Source: an uncultured bacterium (lineage in GTDB: Bacteria > Bacteroidota > Ignavibacteria > UBA10030 > BY39). From it: a stretch of DNA of 64,000 nt. The notes under the pieces are model-generated. The model did not search any database. It had not been told where the DNA came from and saw only the letters and a program-made list of their open reading frames with translations. The stretch lies in assembly GCA_937967455.1 (NCBI GenBank), contig CALCJK010000016.1:27485-91484 (forward strand). The letters are read 5' to 3'. Both the position numbers and the translations under genes were made by a program. Positions 42,586 through 61,713 of the stretch are shown one piece after another (the stretch's first letter is position 1; each line of letters begins with the position of its first letter).

Positions 42586-44964
42586 ATGTTTGCCAATAAA
42601 CCAGCAGTTAAAATTTTAATTCTATTTGCTGTTGGGATTATTTTAGGCAAATTCATTAATCTAGTATCCTACATAACGTTATATATCGGAATATTATTAA
42701 TAATTTTATTGTTTATTACTTATAAATGGAACCGAAACGTTTTATTTACTATTTCATTAGGGACTCTATTAATATTTTTGGGTTTTATAAAATTTTATTT
42801 TGATGCTCGTTATATCCATAATAATCGAATCGATAATTTCATCTCACGCAGTGATGTATTGATAGTAAAGGGCAGAATAACTGATCAACCTATCAAGAAA
42901 ACAAAATATCTCCAGTTTGTTATCGATGCTGATACTTTAATTACTAATGATTCATTATTTATTGTATCAGGTGGTGCTCAAATCATTATACCGTTAGAAA
43001 AAATTAGAGATATTAACCGTTTTAGGTTCGGATATAGAACCACGATTTTTTCTGGCTTATACGCTTTGAGAACTGCAAGAAATCCTGGTGAATTCGATAT
43101 GAAAAATTATCTGGAAGCATATGATATTTATGCAAGAATTCAACTTGATGACGATGAAAAAATATTAATTGACAGTTCAGCTGACAAAAGTTTACTATCA
43201 ATTATATACTCTTTGCGCTCCCTGATTGCTAAAAATATCGAAACTCAAATTGGTGGTTTAGAAGCTACATTTTTGAAGGGAATTTTAATTGGGGATAGAA
43301 GCGAAATTCCATTTGAGTTGAAAGAATCATTTGTAAATTCTGGTGTAGTACATATTCTTGCTGTATCTGGTCTGCATGTGGGAATAATAACTTTTGTTAT
43401 CATAGCTGTTTTTAACCTTTTTCGCCTTCCCGAAAGGATTAGATATCTATTAACTATGTTTTGTTTGGTTTTTTATATCTTTTTAACAGGTGGTTCTGCT
43501 TCAGTCATCCGAGCAACTATAATGGCAGTAATCTTAATGGGTTCGTTTGTGTTTCAACGGAAATTTAATATCTATAACTCTATTGCAGTTGCTGCTTTGA
43601 TAATTCTAATACTTGATTCCAGGCAAATATTTTCTCCAGGATTTCAATTATCGTTTGTTGCAGTAATATCAATTGTAGTACTTTATCCAAAAATTTCCAA
43701 TTTAAAAAATTATTTACCGGAAAACTTAAAACAGATGAAGGTTTTGAAATATATCATTGCATTATTTTCTGTATCATTTACATCAGCTATTGGGACACTT
43801 CCGTTTACATCATACTATTTTGGTAAGATATCAATAATTGGACTTGTTGCTAACTTGTTAATTGTTCCGTTGATGGGAATTGTGCTATCTGTTGGTGTTG
43901 CGTTTACAGTGTTCAGCTTTATTAGCAGCTCAATATCCAGCTTATTTTCTGAAGTTACAAAATTACTTTCAACAATTTTATTATATTCTGTTAATTATTT
44001 TGGATCTTTGAAATATTCTCACATTAACTCATATTTTTCACTGAGTGGTGGGCTACTGTATTATTTTTGGATATTTTATATTGTTACTATAAAAAAACAG
44101 AAAATTTTGGGCAGGATAGTTATAGGAATGCTGCTAATATTAAATATTTATGTTTTTTCCACCATATTTGAAAAATCAAATCTAGAATTTTTATTCTTTG
44201 ATGTAGGTCAAGGAGATGCAATTTTCATAAGAACGCCTGAGAATAAAACAATTTTAATTGATGCTGGTATGAAAAATCCTAATTATGATGCTGCACAATG
44301 GTTCATTAAACCATATTTGTTAAGGAATAATATTAAAAGGTTAGATCTTGTAATTAATTCTCATCCACATTCTGACCACCTCGGTGGTATTCCAACAATG
44401 TTGCGTAATCTTAATGTTACCCGTATGATTGATGCAGGTTCAGCGGAAAGATCAGATATGTATAATGAATACAAAAAATTATTGGATTCATTGAAGATTA
44501 ATTATGTTATAAAAACTCGAGGTGATACAATTTTTATTGATGATAAAATTCGTTTATATGTTTTGAATCCTTCTGCAAAAATTTTAAGCACAAGTAATTT
44601 GAATAATCATTCAATCGTTTTAAAGATATTGTATAAAAAGACCTCTATTATTTTAACAGGTGATATTGAGTCGGAATATGAAATGGAATTAGCTGAGTTA
44701 TATAAAGAATTTTTGAAATCGGATGTTTTTAAATGTCCACATCATGGAAGTAATACAAGCAGTAGTAAAGATTTTATTAAGTTTGTAAATCCAAAATATG
44801 CCATTATTTCTGTTGGTCAAAACAATAAATATGGCCATCCATCTAAAGAAGTATTAGACAGATTGAAGCATATGGATATAAATATTTTTAGAACTGATCA
44901 GCATGGTGCGATATTGTTTCATTCTGATGGGGAGGAAGTATGGAATGTTGATTGGAGGGAATAA
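42586..44964 (+). CDS. comEC: DNA internalisation competence protein ComEC/Rec2
   Basis: The body is polytopic membrane. The C-terminus has a metallo-beta-lactamase domain with HPHSDHLGG. The length is 792 aa. Confidence 0.85.
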   Translation: MFANKPAVKILILFAVGIILGKFINLVSYITLYIGILLIILLFITYKWNRNVLFTISLGTLLIFLGFIKFYFDARYIHNNRIDNFISRSDVLIVKGRITDQPIKKTKYLQFVIDADTLITNDSLFIVSGGAQIIIPLEKIRDINRFRFGYRTTIFSGLYALRTARNPGEFDMKNYLEAYDIYARIQLDDDEKILIDSSADKSLLSIIYSLRSLIAKNIETQIGGLEATFLKGILIGDRSEIPFELKESFVNSGVVHILAVSGLHVGIITFVIIAVFNLFRLPERIRYLLTMFCLVFYIFLTGGSASVIRATIMAVILMGSFVFQRKFNIYNSIAVAALIILILDSRQIFSPGFQLSFVAVISIVVLYPKISNLKNYLPENLKQMKVLKYIIALFSVSFTSAIGTLPFTSYYFGKISIIGLVANLLIVPLMGIVLSVGVAFTVFSFISSSISSLFSEVTKLLSTILLYSVNYFGSLKYSHINSYFSLSGGLLYYFWIFYIVTIKKQKILGRIVIGMLLILNIYVFSTIFEKSNLEFLFFDVGQGDAIFIRTPENKTILIDAGMKNPNYDAAQWFIKPYLLRNNIKRLDLVINSHPHSDHLGGIPTMLRNLNVTRMIDAGSAERSDMYNEYKKLLDSLKINYVIKTRGDTIFIDDKIRLYVLNPSAKILSTSNLNNHSIVLKILYKKTSIILTGDIESEYEMELAELYKEFLKSDVFKCPHHGSNTSSSKDFIKFVNPKYAIISVGQNNKYGHPSKEVLDRLKHMDINIFRTDQHGAILFHSDGEEVWNVDWRE

Positions 44965-45058
44965 AGATATTATATGTTATTTATCTTTCTAAAAATTCGT
45001 AAAAAATTTTGTTTCAGTCCATCTTTTTAATTATTTTAAATAAAAAAGGTTAAGAAGG

Positions 45059-46699
45059 ATGGATAAAATCCATAAAAAGTATATGGAATGGATGGAAAAA
45101 ATTTTATCTCCATTCTTGAGTAAGAATATGGAAAGAAAAAAATCCTTTACTACGGATTCTAATATAAATATAGAAAGATTATATTTACCTAAAGAAATTG
45201 ATTATGAAAATGAAATAGGTTTTCCTGGAGATTATCCGTTCTTGCGTGGCGTGTATCCAACAATGTATAGAGGTCGCCTCTGGACAATGCGCCAGTATGC
45301 TGGATTTGGTAATGCAGAGGAAACAAATAAAAGATTTCACTTTTTGTTAAATCATGGCACTACTGGACTTTCAGTTGCGTTCGATTTGCCAACTCAAATA
45401 GGTTACGATTCTGATCATGATTATGCTGAAGGTGAGGTTGGTAAGGTTGGTGTTGCAATCGATTCGCTTGAAGATATGGAGGTGCTTTTTAATGGAATTG
45501 AATTAAAAAAGATCTCTACATCGATGACTATCAATGCAACTGCTGCTATTTTACTCTGTATGTATGTAGCTATCGCTAAAAAACAAAATGCTGATTTATC
45601 AAAGATTTCGGGAACGATACAAAATGATATTTTAAAAGAATATATATCCCGCGGAACTTACATCTATCCTCCTGAACCTTCAATGAGATTGGTTACAGAT
45701 ATTTTCAGCTGGTGTAATAGTAATTTACCCAGATGGAACACCATCTCAATCAGTGGATATCATATTCGGGAAGCTGGTGCAAATGCAGTTCAGGAGGTAG
45801 CTTTTACACTGGCAAATGCAATAGCTTATGTTTCGGCAGCAATTGATGCAGGACTTGATGTCAATAATTTTGGTTCTCAGTTATCTTTCTTTTTTAACTC
45901 GCACAATAATTTCTTTGAGGAAATTGCAAAGTTTAGAGCAGCACGACGACTTTGGGCAAAAATTATGCGAAATAAATTCAATGCTAAGAATCCAGAATCA
46001 ATGAAATTGCGCTTTCATGCACAAACTGCAGGTTCAACCTTAACTGCTCAACAAATCGATAACAATATTATAAGGGTAACATTACAAGCTCTTGCTGCTG
46101 TTCTTGGAGGTTGTCAGTCGCTTCATACAAATAGTAAAGATGAAGCCCTGTCTCTTCCAACTGAGGATTCAGTCCAGCTTGCTTTACGTACACAACAAAT
46201 CATTGCTTATGAAAGTGGTGTAACAGATACAATCGATCCACTTTGTGGTTCATATTTTATTGAGGAATTAACCAATCGGATTGAACAAAATGCAATGGAA
46301 TACATTGAAAAGATCCAGAATCTTGGTGGTTCTGTAAAAGCAATCGAATCAAAATTTTATCAAAATGAGATTGCAAATAGTTCGTATGAATATCAAAAAG
46401 CTATAGAGAAGAAAGAAAAAATAATTGTTGGGTTAAATGAATTTGTAACTGAAAGTAAAATTCAACCAAAAATTTTAAGAATCGAGCAAACAATTAGAGA
46501 TAAGCAAATTCAAAGACTCAAGGCTCTAAAACAGAAGAGGAATAATCAGGAAGTTCGGCAAAAGTTGGAAGATTTGAAACGTGTTGCAGAAACATCACAA
46601 AACTTAATTCCAAAAATACTGGATGCTGTAGAATCGTATGCAACGCTTGGCGAAATATCAGATGCTTTAAGAGATGTTTGGGGTGAATATAAAGAATGA
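45059..46699 (+). CDS. methylmalonyl-CoA mutase family, catalytic (large, N-terminal) subunit without B12-binding domain
   Basis: [30 protein letters not shown] and [21 protein letters not shown] match the TIM-barrel substrate domain of acyl-CoA mutases. The protein ends before a B12 (DxHxxG) domain would begin. Confidence 0.8.
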
Positions 46700-46715
46700 A
46701 GGAAGTCAATATCAA

Positions 46716-48257
46716 ATGAATCAAAGAGATATAATATTAGTATTAGATTTTGGTTCGCAATATACACAGCTGATTGCACGCAGAATAAGGGAAGTTGGTG
46801 TTTATTCTGAAATTGTCCCGTATTCAATTTCGGTTGAGGAAATTAAGAAAATTAATCCACGTGGATTAGTATTTTCTGGTGGTCCTGCAAGTGTCTATGG
46901 AGTAAATTCACCAGTTCCTGATGGAGAGATTTTTAGTTTGAATATTCCAATACTTGGGATATGTTATGGACTACAATTGATTTGCTCTATGTTGGGTGGA
47001 AAAATTAAACAAGCTAAAGTACGCGAATTTGGAAAAGCGGAAATGTTTCTGGATAGCAATTCTAATTTATTTTCAGGATTAAATGAAAAAATAAATGTTT
47101 GGATGAGCCATTCGGATATTGTTACAGAAATTCCCGATTCTTTTAAAATTATTGCCCGCACAGAAGCATCTCAATTCTGTGCAATAGAAGACTCAAAAAA
47201 GAGAATATTTGGTGTTCAATTCCATCCCGAAGTAGTGCATACAGAAAATGGTATAAACATTTTTAAGAATTTTGTTTATAAAATTTGTGAATGTTCTGGA
47301 ACATGGAGTCCAAAATATTTTATTGATAATAAAATCGAAGAAATTAATAAAATAGTTGGAAATAAAAAAGTAATTTGTGCAATAAGTGGTGGAGTTGATT
47401 CAACAGTCCTTGCTGTGTTAATGAACAAGGCAATCGGTAAGAATTTATATTGCTTCCATATTAATAATGGAGTTATGAGGGAATCAGAAAGTGAAGATGT
47501 TGTATCAAGTTTTAGGAAGTTTTTCAATATAGATATTGATTATATTGATGCAACAGAAGAATTCTTATCTCGTCTTGCTGGAGTTGAAGACCCTGAAATG
47601 AAGAGAAAAATCATTGGAAATACTTTTATAGAAATTTTCGAGAGAGAAGCAATTAAAATAGGGAATATAGCTTATCTTGCACAGGGAACTTTATACCCTG
47701 ATGTCATTGAATCGAGTTCTGCTACTTCTCCATCTGTAAAAATAAAATCACACCATAATGTAGGCGGATTACCTGAGAAGATGCACTTAAAATTGATTGA
47801 ACCCCTCAGAGAATTATTTAAAGACGAAGTTAGAAAAATTGGCAGTGAATTGAAAATCCCTGAAGAAATGTTGAATCGTCATCCATTCCCCGGTCCAGGT
47901 TTAGCTGTTCGTATCATCGGTGAAGTTACAAGAGAAAAACTTGAGATACTCCGTAAAGCTGACTCAATCTTCATAGAGGAAATCAAAAAAGCTGATCTTT
48001 ATAAAGATATCTGGCAGGCATTTGCTGTATTACTTCCGGTGCAAACAGTTGGCGTAATGGGTGATGAAAGAACTTATGAAAATGTTATAGCATTAAGAGC
48101 TGTTTCAAGTGTGGACGGCATGACCGCTGATTGGTATAAAATGCCACTGGACTTACTCGAAAAAGTTTCTAATAGAATTATTAATGAAGTTCATGGAATT
48201 AATCGTGTAGTATATGATATAAGTTCCAAACCACCAGCTACTATAGAATGGGAATAG
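46716..48257 (+). CDS. guaA: GMP synthase (glutamine-hydrolysing)
   Basis: [27 protein letters not shown] matches the E. coli GuaA N-terminus. The PP-loop SGGVDS is present. The track start (46674) is replaced by the ATG at 46716. Confidence 0.9.
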
Positions 48258-48264
48258 ATATACT

Positions 48265-49098
48265 ATGAAAAAATATCTCCGTTTTATAAAAATTGAGCAC
48301 ACATTATTTTCACTACCTTTAGTCTACGCTGGAGTATTTCTCGCAGTTGAAGATTTTCCATCCTCGAAATTATTGATTTTAGTACTATTAGCGGCAATTG
48401 GTGCAAGAATATTTGCAATGTCGATAAATAGAATCATTGATGCTGAAATCGATAAGAGAAATGCTCGTACAAAAAATCGAGAAATACCTTCCAATCAAAT
48501 GAATATATTTGAAGGATTTGCAATTGCGATTGCTGGATTGATAATTTATTTATCTTCAGCATATTATATTTCTATCTTTTGCTTTTTTCTTTCTCCAATA
48601 CCATTAATTATTTTTGTAATTTACCCTTACTTGAAAAGGTTTACAAAATTAGCACACTTCGGTGTTGGATTAGGACTTTCAATGGCACCACTGGGAGGGT
48701 GGTTTGCAGTAAAAAATAGTTTTGAACAATTACATATTGGTTTGTTATTACCTTTGTTTACTTTTTTTTGGGCAACAGGCTTCGATATTATATATTCCAC
48801 TCTTGATGAATCGTTTGATAAAAAAGAGGGACTATTTTCTTTCCCGGCTGTTTATGGTTCACAAAAAGCACTAAAATTTTCAGCTCTTTTACATGTACTT
48901 TCATTTATTGTGTTAATTATTACCTATATAATTACAATAAATAAAATTGCTGCGCTTCCGTTTTTGTTATTCACAGGTTACTTGCTGTATCTTGAACAAA
49001 AAAAATCTACAGATGTCGAACTTGCATTTTTTAAGATAAATGCAATAGTAGGATTTGTCGTTTTTATTATGATCATGATGAAAGGAATAAAATTATGA
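48265..49098 (+). CDS. UbiA-family aromatic prenyltransferase (MqnP-like candidate)
   Basis: A polytopic membrane protein with the prenyltransferase Asp-rich region NRIIDAEIDKRNARTKNR. It overlaps ubiX and lies just upstream of the UbiD-like gene. Confidence 0.75.
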   Translation: MKKYLRFIKIEHTLFSLPLVYAGVFLAVEDFPSSKLLILVLLAAIGARIFAMSINRIIDAEIDKRNARTKNREIPSNQMNIFEGFAIAIAGLIIYLSSAYYISIFCFFLSPIPLIIFVIYPYLKRFTKLAHFGVGLGLSMAPLGGWFAVKNSFEQLHIGLLLPLFTFFWATGFDIIYSTLDESFDKKEGLFSFPAVYGSQKALKFSALLHVLSFIVLIITYIITINKIAALPFLLFTGYLLYLEQKKSTDVELAFFKINAIVGFVVFIMIMMKGIKL

Positions 49099-49646
49099 AA
49101 ATTGCTGTAGGAATTACAGGATCATCAGGTGCAATATTTGCAGTGGAATTTTTGAAGAATTGCCCTGCAGAAAAGTTTTTGGTAGTATCTAAGTGGGGTA
49201 AAGTGGTGCTTAAAGATGAAGTTGGACTAACAGACAAGGATCTTAAGCCTTATATTAAAAGACAATTTTCAAATGATGATCTTACTTCACCATTAGCTTC
49301 AGGAACAAATTCGATCGATGCTGTAATTATTATCCCATGTACAACATCTACAATTGGAAAAATTGCTTCTGGTATTGGTGATACACTCTTAACAAGAATG
49401 GCACAGGTCGCATTAAAAGAAAAAAGGAAACTCATATTGTGTGTTAGGGAAACTCCGCTCTCAACAATTACACTTGAACAAGCATGGAAATTATCAAGAG
49501 ATGGTGTGATAATTATGCCTATATCTCCACCATTGTATTTTAAACCACAAAATATACAGGAATATGTTGATGCATTTGTAAATAAGCTGAATGGCGTATT
49601 AGGAGTTCAGGAAATTAAGGGTTGGAGGTATGAAGAGTTAGAATGA
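49095..49646 (+). CDS. ubiX: flavin prenyltransferase UbiX/Pad1 family
   Basis: The N-terminus reads MKIAVGITGSSGAIFA. The size is 183 aa. Confidence 0.85.
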   Translation: MKIAVGITGSSGAIFAVEFLKNCPAEKFLVVSKWGKVVLKDEVGLTDKDLKPYIKRQFSNDDLTSPLASGTNSIDAVIIIPCTTSTIGKIASGIGDTLLTRMAQVALKEKRKLILCVRETPLSTITLEQAWKLSRDGVIIMPISPPLYFKPQNIQEYVDAFVNKLNGVLGVQEIKGWRYEELE

Positions 49647-51460
49647 TCAGAAAATTCACTTCTTTAAAAGAATTTGTGTTTTATCTTGAATCTATTGGTG
49701 ATTTGCATCGCATTCAAGTCGAAGCAGATCCATACCTAGAAACCACTGAAGTTGCAATACGGGCATTAAAAGAGAACAAACCTGCCATACTTTTTGAAAA
49801 TCCCAAAGGGGCAAAGTTTCCACTTGCTATGAATATTCTGGCAAGTGAAAAAAGAATTGAACATGCCCTTGGTGTTCATCCTGAAGAGTTGGGAGAAAAA
49901 TTAATAAAATTTATCGAAATTATTTTTCCCCCGAATTTTAAAGTTTTATTGAAACATAGTTCAATGTTGTTTAGATTTCTTCGTGCAATACCTAAAAAAT
50001 CTCATGGGTTTTCACAGGATGTGATCAAAGACCCAGATTTATCACAGCTACCAATACAAAAATGCTGGCCAGGTGATGGTGGAAAATTTATTACTCTTGG
50101 ACAAGTAATTACTTATGACCCATTAAGTAAAAAAAGGAATATTGGCATTTACAGGATGCAAGTTTTTGATAATGTATCGACTGGTATGCACTGGCAAATT
50201 CAGAAAGGTGGTGGTTTTCATTATTATCAAGCTCAAAAACTAAATCAACCACTCGAAGTTGCTGTAGTAATAGGTAGTGATCCAGCACTTTTGCTCGCCA
50301 GTGTAGCAGCACTACCTGAAGGTATTGATGAAGTTTTATTTGCAGGTTTTTTACGAAATGATAGGATTCGGTTAACAAAAGCTAAAACAATTTCAATTGA
50401 TGTCCCATCTAATGCTGAATTTATTTTGGAAGGTAAAATCTCACCTACGGAATCAAGATTAGAAGGACCTTTTGGAGATCATTTTGGCCATTATTCGGCA
50501 GAATCTAATTTTCCAGTTTTTAGGTTAAGTGCAATCACTCACAGAAAAGATCCAATTTATCCGGGTACTATTGTAGGCAAACCACCAATGGAGGATAAAT
50601 TTTTAGGGAATGCAACTCAGCAAATTCTTGGTCCACTTATTCGACTAATCCATCCTGAGATTAAAAGTTTATGGGCATATTACGAAGCGGGATTTCATAA
50701 CCTGCTTGTAATTGCAATAGAAGAAAGGTACGAAAAGGAAGCTCTCAAAACAGCCCTCTCAGTAGTAGGTGAAGGTCAGCTCTCACTAACTAAATGTGTA
50801 ATTACTGTTTCTGCAGATGTTAACCCAAGAGATTGGAGTGCTGTATTAAATGAAATTAAACAGAATTTTGATCCGAAGTATGATTTTGTAATGGTTCCAA
50901 AAGTTCCACTGGATACACTCGACTTTACAAGTTACAAGATGAACCTCGGAAGTAAAATGATTATTGATGCGTGTAAGAAGAGAACTCGGAAATATGATAC
51001 ACAAAATATCCCAAAATATAATGTCAAAGATGTGATGCAATATCTATTAAATCTTAACAATCGAATACTTGATGTAAATATTTTACAAGATACATTGTTA
51101 ATTGTTAAAGTAAATTCAAACATTTTTGGAATAGAAACACCAGAACAATCCATTGGTAAGAAAATTGTCCAGAAAATTATTTTAGATCCACAATTTTCAG
51201 ATTATAAAATAATTGCAGTTGTTAGCGAAGATGTGAATATTCACGATCAGGAAAGTTATATCTGGGGTATTTTCACACGATTTGACTGTGAAAGGGATAT
51301 AATTTTCAAAGAACAAAAATTAATTGGAATATCACCTGTGTATTCTGGACCTATGGGAGTTGATGCAACCTGGAAATATGGTTATCCAAAACCATTATTG
51401 ATGGATGAGTCAATTATCAGGTTAGTAGACAATAAATGGAATACATATTGGAAAAAGTGA
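49643..51460 (+). CDS. UbiD-family (prFMN-dependent) decarboxylase
   Basis: The size (605 aa) and a UbiD-like N-terminal region fit. It is translationally coupled to ubiX. Confidence 0.8.
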   Translation: MIRKFTSLKEFVFYLESIGDLHRIQVEADPYLETTEVAIRALKENKPAILFENPKGAKFPLAMNILASEKRIEHALGVHPEELGEKLIKFIEIIFPPNFKVLLKHSSMLFRFLRAIPKKSHGFSQDVIKDPDLSQLPIQKCWPGDGGKFITLGQVITYDPLSKKRNIGIYRMQVFDNVSTGMHWQIQKGGGFHYYQAQKLNQPLEVAVVIGSDPALLLASVAALPEGIDEVLFAGFLRNDRIRLTKAKTISIDVPSNAEFILEGKISPTESRLEGPFGDHFGHYSAESNFPVFRLSAITHRKDPIYPGTIVGKPPMEDKFLGNATQQILGPLIRLIHPEIKSLWAYYEAGFHNLLVIAIEERYEKEALKTALSVVGEGQLSLTKCVITVSADVNPRDWSAVLNEIKQNFDPKYDFVMVPKVPLDTLDFTSYKMNLGSKMIIDACKKRTRKYDTQNIPKYNVKDVMQYLLNLNNRILDVNILQDTLLIVKVNSNIFGIETPEQSIGKKIVQKIILDPQFSDYKIIAVVSEDVNIHDQESYIWGIFTRFDCERDIIFKEQKLIGISPVYSGPMGVDATWKYGYPKPLLMDESIIRLVDNKWNTYWKK

Positions 51461-51491
51461 AAAAATTATTAAATAAAATAGTATCAAAAAT

Positions 51492-53351
51492 ATGAAAATT
51501 AATTTTATAGATAAATCCTTAATACCAATCTGGGAAAAAATACAGAATTCTGAAAGATTGTCGTTTGAAGATGGAATTAAGCTGTTTCAAACAAACGATT
51601 TAATTTCACTTGGTAAAATGGCTAATTGGTATAGCTTTACTAAAAGTGGTGATTCTGTTTATTTCGTGTTGAACAGAAAAATTGAACATACAAATATTTG
51701 TGTTCTTTCCTGTAAATTCTGTGATTTTGCTAAGAAAAAAGGTGAACCCGGTGCTTATGAAATGACAACGGAAGAGATATTATCCAAGCTTTCTGATGAA
51801 ATACAGGAGGTTCATATAACTGGTGCAATGCCACCTGATTGGAATTGGGAAAGATATATAGATATCGTTAAATCAATTCACTCTAAATTTCCAAAAATTG
51901 ATATTAAAGCGTATACAGCGGTTGAAATTGATTTTTTCCATAAGAAATTTAAAATACCAGTTGAGAATATTCTGCTCGAGTTGAAAGATGCTGGATTAAA
52001 AACTTTACCTGGTGGAGGAGCAGAGATATTTTCAGAACGAGTTCGTCGATTGCTTTTCAATCAAAAAATTGGAGAAAAACGCTGGCTTGAGATTCATAAA
52101 ATTGCGCATAGACTTGGAATTCCAAGTAATGCAACCATGCTATATGGACATATAGAAACTGTTGAAGAGAGAGTGTCACATTTGGTAAAACTTCGGAAAG
52201 CTCAAGACGAATCTGGAGGATTTCTGAGCTTTATCCCACTTGCATTTCAACCTGGTGAAACAGGTATAAAACCAAAAGAGGATTTCACTTCGGCAATTGA
52301 TGATCTTAAAACTATTGCTGTAAGTCGTTTGATGCTTGATAATATTCCACATATAAAAGCTTACTGGGTAATGTTAACTGAAGAGGTGGCTGCGGTTGCA
52401 TTGAATTTCGGAGCAGACGATATCGATGGAACAGTTGGCGAAGAACACATAGCACACGATGCTGGTGCAATTAGTCCAATGAAGTTAGCGAAAGAACAAA
52501 TTATCAGAATAATTAAAGAAGCCGGAAAAGTAGCTGTCGAAAGAGATGTGTTTTATAATCCAATAAAAATATATGGAAATAAAATTATAGGCAAAATTCC
52601 TTATTTAAATTCAATTCCAATTTATCACAACCTGAAAATCGAAGGATATAAAACTGTAACACTCTTTCCAAGCCAACTTGGTAAAATGATTGCTAATGGT
52701 GATATTAGTGCTGGGCTGATATCTCTTGTTGATTATTTTAAAAATAAGGATAAATTAAAAATTTCTAAATGGTGTGTATCGAGTCGTAATAAAGTTCAAA
52801 GTGTGATACTCTTTTCCAAATTTTCCTGGGAAAACTTACATAAGAAAAGAATTGGAATATCTGAAGAAACATCAACTTCAGTACTTTTACTAAAAATTTT
52901 ACTTTTGAAGAAGTACAATGTAAAAGCTGATTTTGAAATATTTAACCCTTCATTGAAAAACTATTCTGAGTACGATGCGATTTTATTAATTGGTGATAAT
53001 GCTCTTAGAGAACTATACAACCCTAAAAAGGATTTTAGCTATACTTATGATCTTTCAGAGGAGTGGTATAGCTGGCAGGGATTACCCTTTGTGTTTGCTG
53101 TTTGGGTTGAAAAGCAGAATTTTACTGATGAAATAATCGTTGATGATATTATTATTAAGCAGAATATAGATAAGAATTTATCTAACATTGGAAATATAAT
53201 TAGCTATTACAAAAGTACAATTTCTTTATCAGATGACAAATTAATTGAATACATTAAAGGATTTAAGTATGAGATTAATGAGGAAGAAAATTTAGCTATT
53301 AATAAATTCCAGAATTTACTTGAGGAAATTAATGTATGCTTGAAAGTATAA
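51492..53351 (+). CDS. radical-SAM menaquinone (futalosine-route) enzyme of the MqnC/MqnE family fused to a C-terminal MqnA/MqnD-fold domain
   Basis: The N-terminal half has CVLSCKFCDF (Cx3Cx2C) and parallels the next gene throughout. The C-terminal roughly 250 aa begin IIGKIPYLNSIPIYHN and contain PFVFAVWV, as in MqnA-type chorismate dehydratases. Confidence 0.7.
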   Translation: MKINFIDKSLIPIWEKIQNSERLSFEDGIKLFQTNDLISLGKMANWYSFTKSGDSVYFVLNRKIEHTNICVLSCKFCDFAKKKGEPGAYEMTTEEILSKLSDEIQEVHITGAMPPDWNWERYIDIVKSIHSKFPKIDIKAYTAVEIDFFHKKFKIPVENILLELKDAGLKTLPGGGAEIFSERVRRLLFNQKIGEKRWLEIHKIAHRLGIPSNATMLYGHIETVEERVSHLVKLRKAQDESGGFLSFIPLAFQPGETGIKPKEDFTSAIDDLKTIAVSRLMLDNIPHIKAYWVMLTEEVAAVALNFGADDIDGTVGEEHIAHDAGAISPMKLAKEQIIRIIKEAGKVAVERDVFYNPIKIYGNKIIGKIPYLNSIPIYHNLKIEGYKTVTLFPSQLGKMIANGDISAGLISLVDYFKNKDKLKISKWCVSSRNKVQSVILFSKFSWENLHKKRIGISEETSTSVLLLKILLLKKYNVKADFEIFNPSLKNYSEYDAILLIGDNALRELYNPKKDFSYTYDLSEEWYSWQGLPFVFAVWVEKQNFTDEIIVDDIIIKQNIDKNLSNIGNIISYYKSTISLSDDKLIEYIKGFKYEINEEENLAINKFQNLLEEINVCLKV

Positions 53352-54412
53352 TAAATAAAATAAATTCAAGTGAGAGAATAAATTTTGATGAGGCATTATA
53401 TCTTTTACGAAGAACTGATATTCTAGATCTTGGTGAACTTGGAAATATTATTAGGTTTCGAAAAAATCCTGATCCACATGTTACATTTGTTGTGGATACA
53501 AATCCAAATTATACAAATGTGTGTACAATTGATTGTATATTTTGTGCTTTTTATCGCCATCCAGGAGAAGAAGGAGAATATACTCTTTCTATCGATGAAT
53601 TAATTCAGAAGTTTAAAGAATCAGCAAACAAGGGTGTTACAACAATCTTACTTCAAGGTGGAGTAAACCCCAATTTGCCATTGGATTATTATCTTGAACT
53701 GGTTTATCGGACACGTAATGAAGTTCCAGAGATTCACCCTCATTTTTTTTCTGTTTCAGAAATTGTTGGAATGGCTGAGGTATCAAAACTTCCGATAGAA
53801 GAAGTTTTGCAGAGATTGTGGGATGCTGGTTTAAGAACTATCCCTGGTGGAGGTGCTGAAATTTTATCAGATCGGATTAAGAAAAAAATCTCGCATAAGA
53901 AAGAAACTTCCGAGCAATGGCTGAACGTTATGCGAGTTGCACATCGAATTGGATTTAAAACTACGGCAACTATGATGTATGGGCACCTCGAAACGGATGA
54001 AGATATTATTCTGCATCTGGAAAGTCTACGAAAATTGCAAGACGAAACACAGGGTTTTACTGCATTCATTCCCTGGTCTTTTAAGCCAGGTAATACCCCG
54101 CTTGAAAAAATTATACCACATTATGCATCAAGCACCAGATATTTACAAATAATTGCATTATCCAGAATTTATCTGGATAATTTTCCTCATGTTCAAGCAT
54201 CATGGTTTTCAGAAGGTAAAAAAATTGGCCAGATAGCACTACATTTTGGTGCTGACGATTTTGGCGGAACATTACTCGAAGAGAATGTCCATGCAGCAGC
54301 CAATTATGTAAGTAAATCCAATACTGATGAAGTTATTAGTTTGATAAAGAAAGCAGGTTTTATTCCTGTACAAAGAACAACTCTATACGAGATATTAAAG
54401 ATATATAATTGA
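53336..54412 (+). CDS. radical-SAM menaquinone (futalosine-route) enzyme, MqnC/MqnE family
   Basis: It has CTIDCIFCAF (Cx3Cx2C) and strong end-to-end similarity to the N-terminal half of the previous gene (GGGAEI..., TATMMYGH..., FGADDFGGT...). Confidence 0.75.
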   Translation: MLESIINKINSSERINFDEALYLLRRTDILDLGELGNIIRFRKNPDPHVTFVVDTNPNYTNVCTIDCIFCAFYRHPGEEGEYTLSIDELIQKFKESANKGVTTILLQGGVNPNLPLDYYLELVYRTRNEVPEIHPHFFSVSEIVGMAEVSKLPIEEVLQRLWDAGLRTIPGGGAEILSDRIKKKISHKKETSEQWLNVMRVAHRIGFKTTATMMYGHLETDEDIILHLESLRKLQDETQGFTAFIPWSFKPGNTPLEKIIPHYASSTRYLQIIALSRIYLDNFPHVQASWFSEGKKIGQIALHFGADDFGGTLLEENVHAAANYVSKSNTDEVISLIKKAGFIPVQRTTLYEILKIYN

Positions 54413-54416
54413 TGAA

Positions 54417-55772
54417 ATGGAAATCGAACCAATTATTACTCCACTAAACATTGAGCTATCTCCTATTGAGCTTTTCAGGCGTCTTGAACTAAAACGAGGT
54501 AATGTATTGCTTGAAAGCTCATTATATCATCCGCAAATTTCAAATCAATCAATAATTGCCTTTAACCCGAAAAAGATTATTGAATTGGAAACCTCTGATC
54601 TAAAAATACCTTCAAATACAAATTATTTTATTGAGGAATATTTACAAGAACTAAGACAGATGTTTAATGCATATAAAACATCAAATAACAAATATTTTCC
54701 AGGAGGTTTAATTGGTTACTTTAGCTACGATTTTGGATTGAGATTTGAGAATGTCATATCAAAAAATGAGTCTTTAATTGATTTACCTGAATTGTTTTTT
54801 GGAGTATATGAAAATGCATTAGTCTATGATCATGATTCAAAGCGTTGGTTTGCAACAGGGATTGAAGATGTTAATCAGATAATAAAGTTAGTTTATGAGC
54901 GATTGAATCAGAAACCGTTACTTGTAGACTCACAGGAATCTGTAAATTTAAAATCAAATTTTTTGTACAATGATTACATAAATGCAGTTAATAAAGTTAA
55001 AGATTATATTAAAAATGGAGATATATATCAGGCAAATCTTACCCATCAATTTTATGGACACACAGAAGAAAAAGCAATTGATATATATACGAAGTTGCGA
55101 CTAACAAATCCAGCTCCATATTCTGCTATATTATGTGTCGATAAAGATAGGTATATTTTAAGTTCTTCTCCAGAATTATTCCTTGATGTTGATGGTAAAC
55201 GAGTTCAGACCAGACCAATTAAAGGTACGATTCAGCGCGGAAAAACAATTGAAGAAGACGAAAAATTGAAAGAGCAACTTCTTTCAAGTAAAAAAGATGA
55301 AGCAGAATTAGTTATGATAGTAGATCTTGAGAGAAATGATTTGAATCGAGTTTGTAAAACAAATAGTGTACAGGTTAATCCATTAAAACAAATTGAGACT
55401 TTTGCAAGTGTTCATCATCTATTTTCCTGTATTTTTGGTGAACTTGATGATGAATCTGATGTTTTTGATTTAATAAGAGCTTCTTTTCCTGGTGGTTCAA
55501 TAACAGGTGCGCCAAAAATTCGAGCAATGCAAATAATTAATGAGCTTGAACCACATAAAAGAGGCATTTATACAGGATCGATAGGTTATATAGGTTTTAA
55601 TAACAAAGCAAAATTTAATATAGCAATTCGAACTATTGCATATAATAAAGGTAAAATTGCAATTGGTCTCGGTGGTGGAATTGTTGCAGATAGCATACCT
55701 GAGCTTGAATATCAAGAAACATTGCACAAAGGCAAGGCAATATTTGAAGCAATCGGAGCGAAGATTTTATGA
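54417..55772 (+). CDS. chorismate-utilising enzyme, aminodeoxychorismate synthase component I-like
   Basis: RPIKGTIQRG and MIVDLERNDL match the PabB/TrpE core. FPGGSITGAPKIRAMQII is present. The size is 451 aa. Confidence 0.75.
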   Translation: MEIEPIITPLNIELSPIELFRRLELKRGNVLLESSLYHPQISNQSIIAFNPKKIIELETSDLKIPSNTNYFIEEYLQELRQMFNAYKTSNNKYFPGGLIGYFSYDFGLRFENVISKNESLIDLPELFFGVYENALVYDHDSKRWFATGIEDVNQIIKLVYERLNQKPLLVDSQESVNLKSNFLYNDYINAVNKVKDYIKNGDIYQANLTHQFYGHTEEKAIDIYTKLRLTNPAPYSAILCVDKDRYILSSSPELFLDVDGKRVQTRPIKGTIQRGKTIEEDEKLKEQLLSSKKDEAELVMIVDLERNDLNRVCKTNSVQVNPLKQIETFASVHHLFSCIFGELDDESDVFDLIRASFPGGSITGAPKIRAMQIINELEPHKRGIYTGSIGYIGFNNKAKFNIAIRTIAYNKGKIAIGLGGGIVADSIPELEYQETLHKGKAIFEAIGAKIL

Positions 55773-56569
55773 TTATTTTTTTAAACGGGGATTTTATAGA
55801 AAAGAACAATGCTAAAGTTAATCCTTTTAATTCGGGATTTTTATATGGGAAGGGATTTTTTGAGACATTTCGAGTAATTAAAAAAAAACCTATTTTGTTG
55901 AGAGAACATATAGAACGACTTAATAAATCTCTGGAGTTTTTTAATTTTGAAAAAGTTAATTATGATTACATCGAAACAGTTATCAATCAATTAATTGAAA
56001 TTAACAATCTAAATTCAGCACGAGTAAGAGTAACTGTAAATCATAATTTAGTAAACGGAAACAATATCTTGGTTAATATTGATGAGTTCAAACCAACATT
56101 TGGAGAATTTGTTTCAGTTATGGTTTTTGATAGTAAAATTATACATGGTGACATAATCCGAATGCACAAATCTACAAGTTATTTATATAATGATTTTGCT
56201 TATGAAGAAGCTAAAGCATTTGGTTATGATGAAGCAGTTTTTGTTGATAATCTAAATCACATAATCGAAGGTACAAGGACAAATGTTTTTATTGTAAAGA
56301 ATGGGGCGGTTTATACACCCTCACTTGATTGTGGAATTTTACCAGGAATTACAAGAAAATTTGTTATTGAAAGCGGTAGAGAGGCAGGTATTATTGTTAA
56401 GGAAAAGTTAATTTCCTACGATGAATTTTTGTATGCCGATGAGATTTTCTTGACTAATTCCTTAAATGGTATCATAAAAGTGAAGAAGGTTAATGATAGA
56501 CTAATTGATAATTTCCTTTTTGCAAAAAAATTTGAAATAATTTTTAAAGATAAACTGGAATTTTATTAA
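55769..56569 (+). CDS. class-IV aminotransferase fold protein, aminodeoxychorismate lyase-like
   Basis: FFETFRV and GILPGITRK are present, and the size (266 aa) fits PabC. It is translationally coupled to the upstream PabB-like gene. Confidence 0.65.
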   Translation: MIIFLNGDFIEKNNAKVNPFNSGFLYGKGFFETFRVIKKKPILLREHIERLNKSLEFFNFEKVNYDYIETVINQLIEINNLNSARVRVTVNHNLVNGNNILVNIDEFKPTFGEFVSVMVFDSKIIHGDIIRMHKSTSYLYNDFAYEEAKAFGYDEAVFVDNLNHIIEGTRTNVFIVKNGAVYTPSLDCGILPGITRKFVIESGREAGIIVKEKLISYDEFLYADEIFLTNSLNGIIKVKKVNDRLIDNFLFAKKFEIIFKDKLEFY

Positions 56570-56585
56570 AATAAGGATATTAATT

Positions 56586-57125
56586 ATGGCAATTTTAAAA
56601 GAAGAAGAGTTCAGGTTGGAAAATGTTTTAAGAATAGCGCAACAAATGTCAGCTGCTGCAAGGACTGCTCCTAAAGCTAGAGGCATTGATAACCTCATTA
56701 TTGCAATTGTAGATAAAGAAGGGATAAAAAAAATTGCAGAGAGAATGCAAGAGTTATCAAAGCAAGGTGAGGGATTTTCTTTTTTTTCTCGAGATGCAAA
56801 CAATATATTGAATTGTGAGTTTTTGTTATTGATCGGAACCAGAATTAAAAGTTTGGGCTTAAAAAATTGCAATCTGTGTGGATTTGATAGTTGTGAGGAA
56901 AAAGATAAACACCCCAAAATACCATGTGTATTTAATGTAAACGATTTAGGTATTGCGATTGGTTCGGCTGTAAGTATAGCGGCAAATAATCGTATTGATA
57001 ATCGTGTAATGTATTCAGTTGGTTTTGCAGCTGTTAATTTAAATTTACTTGGTGAAGATGTAAATATAGCATTTGGGATACCATTAAGTATATCTTCTAA
57101 GAATATATTTTTTGATCGTAAATAA
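56586..57125 (+). CDS. Cys-containing hypothetical protein (ferredoxin-domain-like)
   Basis: It has the cysteine motif CNLCGFDSC...IPC. No firm family assignment. Confidence 0.35.
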   Translation: MAILKEEEFRLENVLRIAQQMSAAARTAPKARGIDNLIIAIVDKEGIKKIAERMQELSKQGEGFSFFSRDANNILNCEFLLLIGTRIKSLGLKNCNLCGFDSCEEKDKHPKIPCVFNVNDLGIAIGSAVSIAANNRIDNRVMYSVGFAAVNLNLLGEDVNIAFGIPLSISSKNIFFDRK

Positions 57126-57139
57126 AAAGGAGAAGATTT

Positions 57140-57643
57140 ATGAGAAATATGACAAAATTGAATCTAGAAGCAGCTTTTGCGGGTGAAAGTCAGGCATATA
57201 TGAAGTATACAATATATGCTGAAAAAGCAGAAAGAGAAGGATTTCACAAAGTTGCTAAGTTATTCAGAGCAATTGCATTTGCTGAAAAGATTCATGCTAC
57301 AAACCATTTTCGTGTACTTGAAAAAATTAGAAGTACCACTGAGAATCTTTATGATGCTGCTGCGGGCGAAAATTATGAAGTAGAAGAAATGTATCCAGCT
57401 TTTGATGCAGTTGCGAGGTTACAAAATGAAAAAGTTGCGGTTCAGTCATTCTACTATGCAGTTACAGCTGAAAAAGTACATGAGTCGATGTACAAGAAAG
57501 CAAAGGAATCAGTAGAAAAAGGAGAAGATATCATTGCGAACAATATTTATGTATGTCCAGTATGTGGTCATACAGTAATTGATGAAGTACCTGATAAATG
57601 CCCTGTTTGTGGATTGTCGAAGGAAAAATATGAGAAGTTTTAA
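57140..57643 (+). CDS. rubrerythrin
   Basis: The ferritin-like di-iron region (EAAFAGESQAYMKY, FAEKIHA) is followed by a C-terminal rubredoxin-like CPVCGH...CPVCG. The RBS is AAAAGGAG. Confidence 0.85.
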   Translation: MRNMTKLNLEAAFAGESQAYMKYTIYAEKAEREGFHKVAKLFRAIAFAEKIHATNHFRVLEKIRSTTENLYDAAAGENYEVEEMYPAFDAVARLQNEKVAVQSFYYAVTAEKVHESMYKKAKESVEKGEDIIANNIYVCPVCGHTVIDEVPDKCPVCGLSKEKYEKF

Positions 57644-59022
57644 TTGGTAATTTGATGTTCTTTTCCTAGTTCTGGAATGATTATTTTAATATCGGTTATT
57701 TTTTCCTGAACTTTAGTTTGTATCCATTTCATTCCTTCTGGTTCACCATGTACAAGTATTAGCGTTTTTGGCTTTAAAATTTTTACAAGGTTAATTAATT
57801 CTTCCCGATTAGAATGAGTTGAGAACCTAAAGTAATCAACATCGCACATTATTTTAATTTCTTCAGTCGATGCGGTTAGTTTAATAACATCATTTTTGTT
57901 TGAGTTTAATATTCTATAACCTGGTGATTTGGGATCCAGATAACCAACGAAGAATATTGCAAAATTCTTATATTTTAACCATCTTTGTGCGAGTAAATAA
58001 GATACTGTGTTTTCAAAAACCATTCCACTTGAGGCTAACACTATACTTGGGACTTTAAAATACTTGTCACTTAATAGATTTTCTTGGTTTAGTTGCGATT
58101 GAGGTATATTTTTTAATATTATTTTATTGTTAGTACGTTTGGAGGTGTATCTGTGTAAATCATATATTGAAGAAATTTCTGTACCTAATCCTCCTGTATA
58201 AACATCAAGTTCTGGAATTGAACCTTTTTTCATCAGAGTATTTAACAGGGCAAGCATTTCCTGTAGTTTTCCTAGTGCAAAAACAGGAATTAAAATCGAT
58301 CCTCCGTTGTCAACAATTTTATTTATTGCTTTTATAAAACGTTTGATTTCCTCTTTTCTGGTTATAGTAGTTTCATTTGTTGCCGTAGTACATTCAAGGA
58401 TTAGAATATCAATATTTTCATTTGGGTAATCAGCACCAGCCATAATGGTTTGTTTACTTGCACATGTGTCGCCAGTGAAGAATATTTTATGATTGGCTGT
58501 TTTCAATAAAAATCCTGCTGATCCAAGTATATGACCTGCATCAAAAACCGAAATCTCTATAGGTTTGATAGATTTGTGATGATATCCTTCTAATTCAATA
58601 CTTTCTTTAACTTTTATTATATTAAATGTTTCAATTAGCAAATCAATTTGTTCTCTGGGATAATATGGAAGTGGATCTGTATCTAAAATTTCTTTTTGTG
58701 ATAAGAACAAACTATTGTGTAGCATCACTTCTGCTATATCTCGCGTCTGTGGAGTTGTATATATTTTAATATGGGGATATTTTTGTATTAAATATGGTAG
58801 AGCTCCAATATGGTCAATATGTGAATGAGAAATTAACGCATAATCTGTGTCAAAATTTTTGAGTATTTCAAAATCAGGTAGTGATTCAATACCTTTTTTT
58901 TCCGGATGTAATCCTGCTTCAAGAATTATTCCTGTTCCGTTCACATTTAAATAATAACAATTTGCGCCAATTTCTTTTTCGCCACCAATTAATGTGAATG
59001 ATATTTTATCATTTTTAAGCAT
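57640..59022 (-). CDS. metallo-beta-lactamase fold hydrolase, beta-CASP-like
   Basis: The MBL motif HSHIDHIGALP is present. The roughly 460-aa length fits beta-CASP RNA-metabolising MBL proteins. Confidence 0.7.
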   Translation of the reverse strand: MLKNDKISFTLIGGEKEIGANCYYLNVNGTGIILEAGLHPEKKGIESLPDFEILKNFDTDYALISHSHIDHIGALPYLIQKYPHIKIYTTPQTRDIAEVMLHNSLFLSQKEILDTDPLPYYPREQIDLLIETFNIIKVKESIELEGYHHKSIKPIEISVFDAGHILGSAGFLLKTANHKIFFTGDTCASKQTIMAGADYPNENIDILILECTTATNETTITRKEEIKRFIKAINKIVDNGGSILIPVFALGKLQEMLALLNTLMKKGSIPELDVYTGGLGTEISSIYDLHRYTSKRTNNKIILKNIPQSQLNQENLLSDKYFKVPSIVLASSGMVFENTVSYLLAQRWLKYKNFAIFFVGYLDPKSPGYRILNSNKNDVIKLTASTEEIKIMCDVDYFRFSTHSNREELINLVKILKPKTLILVHGEPEGMKWIQTKVQEKITDIKIIIPELGKEHQITN

Positions 59023-59883
59023 CTAAATTAATTCGATGTTTGGAATGTTAGATATAAGTCCACGTTCATAAGCTAATTTATAAAGTAATTCAAGTGCAGA
59101 TTTTCCGTTTTCTCCCATGTCGATTGTTAACTGGCTAACGTACATCTTTACAAATTTTTCTCCTAAATTGCGATCAAGTCCACGACCAAATTTTAAAGAG
59201 TAATTTATTGCAGCATCCAAGTTGTTATAACCAAATTCTATGCTTTCCTTCAGTGCTTTGGAAATTTTATATGCCAACTCTTTTCCTAAATCTTTTCTTA
59301 TTACATCTAATCCAAGTGGTAAAGGTAGACCTGATGTAAAGTTGTTCCAGTATTCTCCAAAGTCGATTATTTTATGGAAACCTAAATTCCTAAAAGTTAA
59401 TTGGCCTTCATGAATAATTACTCCTGCATCAAATTCACCATTGTTAATTCTTTCCATAATTTGATCAAAAGGAATATCGATATTATAAATATCCTCAGTA
59501 AAAATTTTAAATAAAAGTGTAGCTGTAGTTAAAGCTCCTGGTGTAGCAACTCTTTTACCTTTTAATTCTTCAACCGATTTATAATTTTTTGAGATAAGTA
59601 CAGGACCATAACATTCCCCCATGCTTGCACCAGTTCTCATAATCCAATATTTTTCCGAAACGATTGGATAGGCATGTGCGCTGATTGCAGTTATTTCAAG
59701 TTCACCTCTGATAGCTCTTTGGTTTAAGGATTGAATATCTTCTAATACATGTTCAATTTTATAATCATCAATTTTTACATTTCCTGATGCGATTCCATAA
59801 AACATAAATGCGTCGTCAGGATCAGGACTATGTCCAATTTTTAAAACTTTATTATTCATTATAACCTCATAATTTTGTCCCAT
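59023..59883 (-). CDS. MqnA/MqnD-family menaquinone biosynthesis protein (probably 1,4-dihydroxy-6-naphthoate synthase, MqnD)
   Basis: LKIGHSPDPDDAFMFYG resembles the conserved N-terminal motif of the MqnA/MqnD family. It is co-operonic with menG. Confidence 0.65.
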   Translation of the reverse strand: MGQNYEVIMNNKVLKIGHSPDPDDAFMFYGIASGNVKIDDYKIEHVLEDIQSLNQRAIRGELEITAISAHAYPIVSEKYWIMRTGASMGECYGPVLISKNYKSVEELKGKRVATPGALTTATLLFKIFTEDIYNIDIPFDQIMERINNGEFDAGVIIHEGQLTFRNLGFHKIIDFGEYWNNFTSGLPLPLGLDVIRKDLGKELAYKISKALKESIEFGYNNLDAAINYSLKFGRGLDRNLGEKFVKMYVSQLTIDMGENGKSALELLYKLAYERGLISNIPNIELI

Positions 59884-60574
59884 AATAAATTGTAACTATA
59901 CCGAATGTTAATGTTTTGTGCTGTACGTTCGTAAAACCTATTTCTTCCAAAATTTTGTTTAATTCCGTTCCTTCAGGAAATTGCATTACTGTATTTGGTA
60001 AATATGTATAAGCAATTTTGTTCTTGGAAATAAGTTTTCCAATCAATGGTAAAATATTTCGAAAGTAAAAAAAGTAAATTTTTTTGAAAATTATATTTTT
60101 TGGTTTAGAAAATTCAAGTATAATTAACTTTCCATTTTTTGCGAGTACTCTATGAATTTCAGATAATCCTTTTTTTAGATTATTAAAATTCCTGATTCCA
60201 AAAGCTGTAATGGCAGCTTGGAATGATTCATTTTTGAATGGTAGATATTCAGCGTTTGCTTTTTGAAAAAATATTTTCTTCTGTAATTCTGCTTTTTCTA
60301 TTTTGACTTTTGCAATTTCTAACATATTTTCAGCTATGTCGATACCAATAACTGTCTTACATCCATATTTTGCTGCAATTATTCCAAAATCTCCTGTTCC
60401 ACAAGCGACGTCTAATATTAGTTCTGGAGCTGGTAGTCCTAAGAATTTAATGGCTCTTCTTCGCCAATAAAAATCCATTCCACCGCTCAAAAAATGATTT
60501 AAAAAATCATATGTTTTGGCAATGGAATTGAAAAGATTTGCTACCTGAGATGTCGTATATTTTTTATCCACCAT
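59867..60574 (-). CDS. ubiE: demethylmenaquinone / ubiquinone C-methyltransferase
   Basis: MVDKKYTTSQVANLFNSIAKTYDFLN parallels the E. coli UbiE N-terminus. The SAM motif LDVACGTGDF is present. The track start (60628) is replaced by the internal Met at 60574. Confidence 0.85.
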   Translation of the reverse strand: MVDKKYTTSQVANLFNSIAKTYDFLNHFLSGGMDFYWRRRAIKFLGLPAPELILDVACGTGDFGIIAAKYGCKTVIGIDIAENMLEIAKVKIEKAELQKKIFFQKANAEYLPFKNESFQAAITAFGIRNFNNLKKGLSEIHRVLAKNGKLIILEFSKPKNIIFKKIYFFYFRNILPLIGKLISKNKIAYTYLPNTVMQFPEGTELNKILEEIGFTNVQHKTLTFGIVTIYYGTKL

Positions 60575-60703
60575 TTTGCTAAATTTGTTTTTAAGATAAC
60601 CAAAGATTTTTAAAAATACAAGATACATTATTTGATTTTAAGTGCTACTATTATTATAATTAATATGTTAAATAAAAATATTAGATGTTTTATGATAATA
60701 GTG

Positions 60704-61708: not shown

Positions 61709-61713
61709 ATCTG

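Follow-up and report, generated by a model that had tools for sequence, protein, structure and literature searches.

How does one gene of an uncultured bacterium come to carry two consecutive enzymes of menaquinone biosynthesis, and does it matter to them that they are joined? The question is raised by a stretch of 64,000 nucleotides (the window) of contig CALCJK010000016.1 (assembly GCA_937967455.1, positions 27,485 to 91,484 of the forward strand), from a bacterium placed by GTDB in the Ignavibacteria of the Bacteroidota. Genes for the futalosine route lie between 48265 and 60628; in that route MqnA forms 3-enolpyruvyl-benzoate by dehydrating chorismate, and MqnE with S-adenosylmethionine (SAM) converts this to aminofutalosine (PMC9672406). 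An original prediction, made from the letters of the sequence, had proposed that the gene at 51492-53351 fuses a radical-SAM enzyme of the MqnC/MqnE family to an MqnA-like domain, with a bifunctional, intermediate-channeling product. Our analyses make it highly probable that the window holds a futalosine cluster with a bifunctional MqnE::MqnA protein of single origin, both activities being predicted from its sequence, and they make channeling plausible.

The two halves of the fused gene

The window has two paralogous radical-SAM genes, which the original prediction had left as members of the MqnC/MqnE family, and had the fused one been MqnC the joined steps would not have been consecutive. The TIGRFAM models told the two apart. 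The fused gene product scored 466.5 bits against the MqnE model TIGR03700 (cut-off 434.55) over aa 13-358, 123 bits above its MqnC score of 343.8, with CofH at 299.4, and the product of the next gene, 53336-54412, scored 475.2 bits against the MqnC model TIGR03699 (cut-off 428.1) versus 351.6 for MqnE. The closest solved structure to the N-terminal half was the MqnE of Pedobacter heparinus (PDB 6XI9, E = 4.6e-82), and C70, C74 and C77 were invariant both in 72 and in 136 fused homologs. The N-terminal half is MqnE, a predicted aminofutalosine synthase.

The C-terminal half had been described as a domain of roughly 250 aa with the MqnA/MqnD fold, and this stood: PF02621 was matched at aa 366-611 (164.7 bits), and both motifs quoted in that description were present, IPYLNSIP at about aa 369-376 and FVFAVWV at about aa 533-539. 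Because PF02621 spans both MqnA and MqnD, each PF02621 protein of the window was compared with solved structures. The sequence matches of the C-terminal domain in the PDB were to MqnA only, i.e., SCO4506 (7AHR/2NXO and mutants, E = 1.5e-23) and DR0370 (2I6E/6O9A, E about 7e-16), with no match to MqnD at E<=0.01. The standalone product of 59023-59883 matched only AF1704 (E = 7e-76) and Thermus thermophilus MqnD TTHA1568 (2CZL/3A3U, E = 1e-49), and no MqnA; a blastp of the C-terminal domain against this window MqnD gave a much weaker match.

Alignment to MqnA extended to the active site. Asn17 and Ser86 are described as absolutely conserved in MqnA, and the N17D, N17S and S86A variants are essentially inactive; Asn17 orients the enolpyruvyl carboxylate, and the substrate carboxylates are bound by Gly151, Thr59 and the Ser109-Ser112 loop (PMC9672406). 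Asn17, Ser86 and Gly151 of ScMqnA are kept in the fused protein, as N373, S437 and G501, the position of Thr59 is occupied by S411, and the loop corresponds to T460-S463. N373, S437, S411, T462/S463 and G501 were invariant both in 72 and in 136 fused homologs, and T460 was kept in 90% or more of the 136. Across the related loci described below, the Asn17 column held N in all 43 fused and all 22 unfused MqnA sequences; in the window MqnD, the columns of Asn17, Ser86 and Gly151 read D, G and H. Judged by these residues, both halves look catalytically competent. No further MqnA-type gene was found in the 64-kb window or in the 20-kb flanks of the fused loci.

The MqnA half cannot be read from the annotation of such proteins, which carry the names "aminofutalosine synthase MqnE" or "aminodeoxyfutalosine synthase" only. 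In NCBIfam release 20, no model matched the MqnA half of the fused protein or the standalone MqnD; the library seems to have none for these two enzymes, and since PGAP-style annotation cannot name MqnA or MqnD from its hidden Markov models, the fused protein is called MqnE alone.

AlphaFold2, given the 136-sequence alignment, returned a model with a predicted local distance difference test score (pLDDT) of 88.0 and a predicted TM-score (pTM) of 0.89, with aa 351-370, which include the junction, at pLDDT 91-94. For a two-domain chain of 619 residues, a pTM of 0.89 means that the mutual orientation of the domains is confidently predicted, and a rigid two-domain protein is what the model predicts. 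Searched with Foldseek against the PDB, the N-terminal half of the model matched MqnE (6XI9/6XIG) with TMt 0.82-0.84 and 39% identity, and the C-terminal half matched MqnA (TMt 0.79-0.83, E about 1e-19) ahead of MqnD (TMt 0.70-0.77, E 1e-10 to 1e-12); no solved chain there covered both domains.

Distribution and origin of the fusion

In a library of 5.8 billion proteins, the best 120 clusters at 90% identity were fused without exception (120 of 120), with lengths of 614-666 aa and the domains PF04055, PF19288 and PF02621, and they derived from NCBI, JGI, ENA and Logan assemblies. The nearest relative of the window protein, at 73% identity, comes from a metagenome-assembled genome (MAG) labeled "Ignavibacteriae bacterium", and identity among fused members falls to about 40%. 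A survey of loci, for which one genome per GTDB species was scanned, produced 80 related loci, and in each of these the frame and stop codons were tested. In about 44 of the 80 the test showed a true single open reading frame (ORF), 617-639 aa long, with a gap of 0-8 aa at the junction. The labels of the fused loci were Ignavibacteria, Ignavibacteriota, "Bacteroidota" and Chlorobi MAGs, plus two labeled delta-proteobacterium and Syntrophales, and a search seeded with a fused representative of 41% identity added candidate division KSB1 and a few MAGs labeled Deltaproteobacteria or Smithellaceae. In a large clade of uncultured bacteria of the Fibrobacteres-Chlorobi-Bacteroidetes (FCB) group, the E::A fusion is the standard form of the gene.

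From tblastn coverage the fusion had seemed to occur in many phyla (Chloroflexota, Acidobacteriota, Latescibacterota and others), and these candidates were rejected when the frame and stop-codon test resolved them into separate adjacent genes. Separate mqnE and mqnA, then mqnC, were found in Chloroflexota/Dehalococcoidia, Acidobacteriota, Latescibacterota, Eisenbacteria, Calditrichaceae, Zixibacteria, Bacillota and one Aquificota MAG, and mqnC follows mqnE-mqnA in nearly all related loci. Among the loci surveyed, mqnA did not adjoin mqnE in Sulfurihydrogenibium, Bryobacteraceae and Nitrospirota. The genome of Ignavibacterium album is reported to have a complete classical men gene set (PMC3362086), which fits the absence of this species from our matches; the fused enzyme is so far seen in uncultured relatives only, the cultured type strains do not host it, and the phylum contains both menaquinone routes.

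The fused proteins in MAGs labeled delta-proteobacterium, Syntrophales, Smithellaceae and Deltaproteobacteria (loci L035 and L042; proteins P0364 and P0372) are a separate observation. L042 is nested in the Ignavibacteria-type clade; L035 is the deepest branch and has mqnL and mqnP on the opposite strand. Occurrences of these types could reflect lateral transfer, mis-binning or mislabeling.

As to how the fusion came about, the fused sequences were monophyletic on a neighbor-joining tree of the MqnE domain, and on that of the MqnA domain all 43 of 43 fused sequences grouped together with no unfused sequence inside. Their sisters on the tree were lineages with adjacent separate genes, in which mqnA usually starts 4-17 nt before mqnE ends; in one such overlap the MqnE tail ...VERDALYNEINVYDS and its stop codon lie over the MqnA head MSTIARVGQIPYLN.... 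The fused junction, ...VERDVFYNPIKIY-GNKI-IGKIPYLN..., reads as an MqnE tail followed by an MqnA head. The same gene order with separate, typically overlapping genes was seen in Chloroflexota, Acidobacteriota, Zixibacteria, the Aquificota MAG and Bacillota, and the ancestral state is separate, translationally coupled mqnE-mqnA-mqnC neighbors. Since the sisters keep mqnE and mqnA in the same order and usually overlapping, the fusion points to stop loss between coupled neighbors. Most simply, a single stop-loss or frameshift event in the coupled pair was followed by vertical inheritance: the fusion would have arisen once, when the stop codon between overlapping, coupled mqnE and mqnA was lost, and would have been kept in a large clade; lateral transfer perhaps also contributed to its spread.

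Function of the fused protein and the case for channeling

If the two halves act as their families do, the C-terminal MqnA domain would convert chorismate to 3-enolpyruvyl-benzoate (3-[(1-carboxyvinyl)oxy]benzoate), and the N-terminal MqnE domain would add to it the 5'-deoxyadenosyl radical from SAM to yield aminofutalosine, making the whole a "chorismate to aminofutalosine" synthase whose domain order, MqnE then MqnA, is the reverse of the reaction order. The fusion would give the two enzymes a 1:1 stoichiometry and the intermediate a short path between them. Channeling of 3-enolpyruvyl-benzoate by the protein is plausible: a short conserved linker (0-8 aa) and the predicted rigid packing of the domains both point to an assisted hand-off. 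MqnA is reported to be purified together with its product, in a closed conformation whose active site must open for release (PMC9672406), and with the product held so tightly an assisted hand-off would be useful.

The company that MqnE keeps in other fusions bears on this. An exhaustive search of 1.84 billion cluster representatives was made, and the best 150 (at 50% identity) were classified against the window domains. MqnE stood alone in 81 of the 150, and in 27 it was followed by an unassigned region of about 370 aa. An A-like domain was fused to MqnC in 11 (P0173 and P0177, about 615-650 aa, among them), MqnE to MqnC in nine (e.g., P0122, 733 aa, in a cluster that includes an Armatimonadota MAG), and MqnE to MqnA in seven. 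Single representatives had the architectures E::A::C (P0133, 906 aa, from a Myxococcota MAG), PF02621::E::C (P0130, 1121 aa) and D::E (P0163, 773 aa), and the remaining 12 were MqnC alone, fragments or duplicated domains. Each of the other Mqn fusions was annotated under a single enzyme name. Mqn fusions may mostly follow operon adjacency, or they may reflect a broader multi-enzyme assembly.

The C-terminal region of about 370 aa that follows MqnE in P0134-P0138, P0144-P0149 and others (P0135 is 739 aa long) had no Pfam match. Compared with MqnC it had a weak colinear likeness (BLASTP E = 0.03), with no CxxxCxxC at the expected place, and it is possibly a degenerate barrel of the radical-SAM type that has become joined to MqnE.

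Several observations weigh against a bifunctional enzyme that passes its intermediate along. Every fused member seen comes from MAGs, and with a shallower alignment of 72 close homologs AlphaFold2 gave pLDDT 65.6 and pTM 0.53, with the radical-SAM half unusable. The E::C, A-like::C and D::E fusions join non-consecutive enzymes, so that fusion alone does not imply channeling, and a Mqn fusion may track gene adjacency and co-expression rather than the hand-off of a specific intermediate.

The alternative that survives best, to which we give a little less than an even chance, is that the protein is bifunctional and its fusion neutral, a harmless stop-loss accident or a means of fixing expression at 1:1, with the intermediate freed to solution and no channeling. 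An ancestral overlap of 4-17 nt would have needed only one frameshift or stop loss to give it, most lineages, like the 81 of 150 representatives with MqnE alone, manage with separate enzymes, and most of the other Mqn fusions join steps that do not follow one another. Such neutrality sits poorly with an architecture kept through divergence to about 40% identity, a linker that stays at 0-8 aa, the fixed domain arrangement of the AlphaFold2 model and an MqnA that holds its product tightly in the closed form (PMC9672406). At the other extreme the protein might be an obligate channeling machine, in which MqnA would be docked rigidly on the MqnE barrel and release its product directly into the radical-SAM active site with no free intermediate, the varied Mqn fusions then reflecting a futalosine metabolon that is non-covalent where the genes are separate; we hold this to be possible and on balance unlikely.

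A much smaller likelihood attaches to the C-terminal domain being an MqnD-type enzyme, or a non-catalytic flytrap module that delivers substrate to MqnE. PF02621 does cover MqnA and MqnD, its fold is that of periplasmic binding proteins (PMC9672406), and NCBIfam names neither PF02621 protein of the window; against this, the solved structures matched by sequence are MqnA only, the invariant Asn17/Ser86/Gly151 set is replaced by D/G/H in the window MqnD, a separate mqnD is present, and a cluster deprived of the MqnA domain would miss step 1. That two separate genes were joined into the long ORF by an error of assembly or sequencing, as a single wrong base could do where sister phyla have the genes separate and overlapping, is next to impossible and is already refuted by recurrence in independent assemblies, the same in-frame fusion with its conserved junction peptide being present in the 120 best clusters, some 44 species-level genomes and the 136 aligned homologs.

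The bifunctional MqnE::MqnA reading concerns known enzymes and a known pathway, leaves the biochemistry unchanged, and as an architectural variant should not surprise a specialist. Both domains belong to known families; the unusual feature is the single-chain E::A architecture, which is visible in databases. No description of it was found in the literature searched, which included work on the MqnA mechanism, on futalosine evolution and on the genome of I. album and a systematic survey of metabolic fusions, and which did not cover the original MqnE paper of 2013, where a prior mention is possible. The practical consequence lies in annotation: with a protein of 620 aa named MqnE only, a pathway reconstruction that allows one name per gene would score MqnA, the first step, as missing in a large uncultured clade. 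The fusion is also a natural piece of Rosetta-stone evidence for joint action of MqnA and MqnE, and it provides one chain in which the passage of tightly bound 3-enolpyruvyl-benzoate to a radical-SAM enzyme can be studied. Humans lack the futalosine pathway, and its use as a drug target has been discussed for Helicobacter and Chlamydia. The clean origin by a single stop loss from overlapping genes makes this a textbook-quality example of gene fusion, and it may serve as a phylogenetic marker of the clade.

The surrounding cluster and known systems

Apart from the single-chain E::A, the cluster is an ordinary, near-complete futalosine-route menaquinone (vitamin K2) cluster, with eight pathway functions (MqnA, MqnE, MqnC, MqnD, prenyltransferase, UbiX, UbiD-type decarboxylase and MenG) in 12.4 kb. 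Its features are collected in the table.

Features of the futalosine cluster and of the fused gene, in window positions
Feature	Position	Strand	Evidence
UbiA-family polyprenyltransferase, MqnP-like by context	48265..49098	+	TIGR01475 ubiA_other 264.5 bits (cut-off 180.8); PF01040
UbiX-family flavin prenyltransferase (MqnM-type; prenyl-FMN for the decarboxylase)	49095..49646	+	TIGR00421 165.9 bits (cut-off 108.9)
UbiD-family menaquinone-pathway decarboxylase, MqnL/SCO4490 type, 605 aa	49643..51460	+	TIGR03701 mena_SCO4490 518.1 bits (cut-off 495.9), aa 10-438
Fused MqnE::MqnA, 619 aa, predicted bifunctional chorismate dehydratase/aminofutalosine synthase	51492..53351	+	Single uninterrupted ORF
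MqnE domain, aa 1-358, predicted radical-SAM aminofutalosine synthase	51492..52565	+	TIGR03700; PDB 6XI9; Foldseek
CX3CX2C [4Fe-4S]/SAM cluster motif CVLSCKFC (C70, C74, C77)	51699..51722	+	Motif search
Junction, aa 359-365, ...IKIY-GNKI-IG..., very short linker	52566..52586	+	
MqnA domain, aa 366-619, predicted chorismate dehydratase, Venus-flytrap fold	52587..53351	+	PF02621; PDB matches; Foldseek
N373, equivalent of ScMqnA Asn17	52608..52610	+	Alignment
S437, equivalent of ScMqnA Ser86	52800..52802	+	Alignment
MqnC, cyclic dehypoxanthinyl futalosine synthase, radical SAM, 358 aa	53336..54412	+	TIGR03699; CX3CX2C at aa 63
PabB-like aminodeoxychorismate synthase component I	54417..55772	+	TIGR00553 355.4 bits (cut-off 328.4)
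PabC-like class IV aminotransferase-fold protein, probable aminodeoxychorismate lyase	55769..56569	+	PF01063 181 bits; NF005800 170.9 bits, under cut-off 308
MqnD (1,4-dihydroxy-6-naphthoate synthase), standalone PF02621	59023..59883	-	PF02621 240.4 bits; PDB matches
MenG/UbiE-family demethylmenaquinone methyltransferase	59867..60628	-	TIGR01934 256.1 bits (cut-off 158.35); NF001244 254.1 bits (cut-off 216)

The ORF map reproduced every gene coordinate of the original prediction, the plus-strand set of 48265-56569 included, with a correction on the opposite strand: MqnD and MenG were rightly named there, on the evidence of PDB matches and TIGR01934, respectively, and the limit given for them, 60574, is an internal Met of the ORF at 59867-60628. 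The translational coupling proposed for the UbiA-like, UbiX and UbiD-like genes was borne out by ATGA overlaps of 4 nt at both junctions (mqnP/ubiX and ubiX/mqnL), and the same overlap occurs between pabB and pabC; mqnEA and mqnC overlap by 16 nt, and the other gaps on the plus strand are at most 31 nt. Of the labels given to the late steps, MqnL and UbiX were upheld by scores above the cut-offs of their models (TIGR03701 and TIGR00421), and that of MqnP fared less well, the product of 48265-49098 reaching 183-205 bits against cut-offs of 375-430 in the MqnP-specific models NF041584-6. Its role as MqnP is suggested by conserved gene position, a UbiA-family gene lying upstream of ubiX-mqnL-mqnE in most related loci. 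The block mqnP-ubiX-mqnL-mqnEA-mqnC is kept in most fused loci, often with mqnD-menG near, and menG adjoins mqnD in many related loci. As the original prediction had said of MqnB/MTAN, a Pfam scan of window ORFs of at least 110 aa found no PNP_UDP_1 domain, and it found no amidohydrolase-type deaminase; the ORFs skipped by the scan were few, short and antisense inside larger genes. Scans of 44500-62500 for promoters and terminators were at chance (88 versus 89.9, and 7 versus 7.6) and were uninformative on operon boundaries.

The decarboxylase extends about 160 aa past the TIGR03701 model (aa 445-605, 50976-51460). A weak self-similarity (E = 0.005) links this extension to the UbiD C-terminal domain, and the extension is conserved, tblastn matches spanning nearly all 605 aa in most related loci. 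The PabB-like and PabC-like genes lie inside the plus-strand range and had been left out of the original prediction. As members of the mqn cluster they were rejected, since they follow mqnC in the window and in just one other locus (L031), and the best reading of them is as folate genes that use chorismate and share the operon; no PabA partner was found in the 64-kb window. Adjoining menG, at 60632-61708, is a gene for a 3-deoxy-D-arabino-heptulosonate 7-phosphate (DAHP) synthase with an N-terminal ferredoxin-like regulatory domain.

At 57640-59022 on the minus strand, a 460-aa beta-CASP metallo-beta-lactamase nuclease abuts mqnD without a gap, which makes its co-transcription with menG-mqnD possible. 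In NCBIfam it came closest to archaeal aCPSF1 (219.9 bits) and to Cas14 of type VII CRISPR (207.5 bits), with scores far under the cut-offs of both models. Farther away, a 537-aa ORF at 34439-36052 (+) had no Pfam match at E<=1e-5, and at 4751-16779 (+) lie genes for proteins of 1294, 461, 811 and 1330 aa that all end in a Por_Secre_tail sorting domain of the type IX secretion system (T9SS), one of them an M14 carboxypeptidase with a MAM-like domain. Together, the T9SS sorting domains and the nearest homolog, at 73% identity, indicate an organism of the FCB group.

Set beside the standalone enzymes, the fused protein is familiar in its parts. Its aa 1-358 share with P. heparinus MqnE (6XI9/6XIG) the fold, the CX3CX2C motif and the CofH_C region; that enzyme is a single domain of about 380 aa, whereas here about 260 aa of MqnA come directly after the MqnE C-terminus. 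With standalone MqnA (SCO4506, 7AHR; DR0370, 2I6E/6O9A) the fused domain shares the flytrap fold, Asn17, Ser86, Gly151 and the carboxylate-binding loop, but it is only 23-25% identical by structure alignment, has Ser for Thr59 and Thr for Ser109, and, lacking a start codon of its own, is tethered to MqnE by about 4-6 residues. The unfused mqnE-mqnA-mqnC operons of Chloroflexota, Acidobacteriota, Zixibacteria and some Bacillota MAGs have the same order and make two polypeptides, where the window lineage has lost the stop. A precedent for such fusion exists in the same radical-SAM family, i.e., the bifunctional FO synthase FbiC/CofGH, in which two enzymes act on one pathway intermediate. The window protein is not a member of that group (245 bits against a cut-off of 1018 in the model NF006687): CofGH joins two radical-SAM domains, whereas the window protein joins a radical-SAM domain to a cofactor-free dehydratase.

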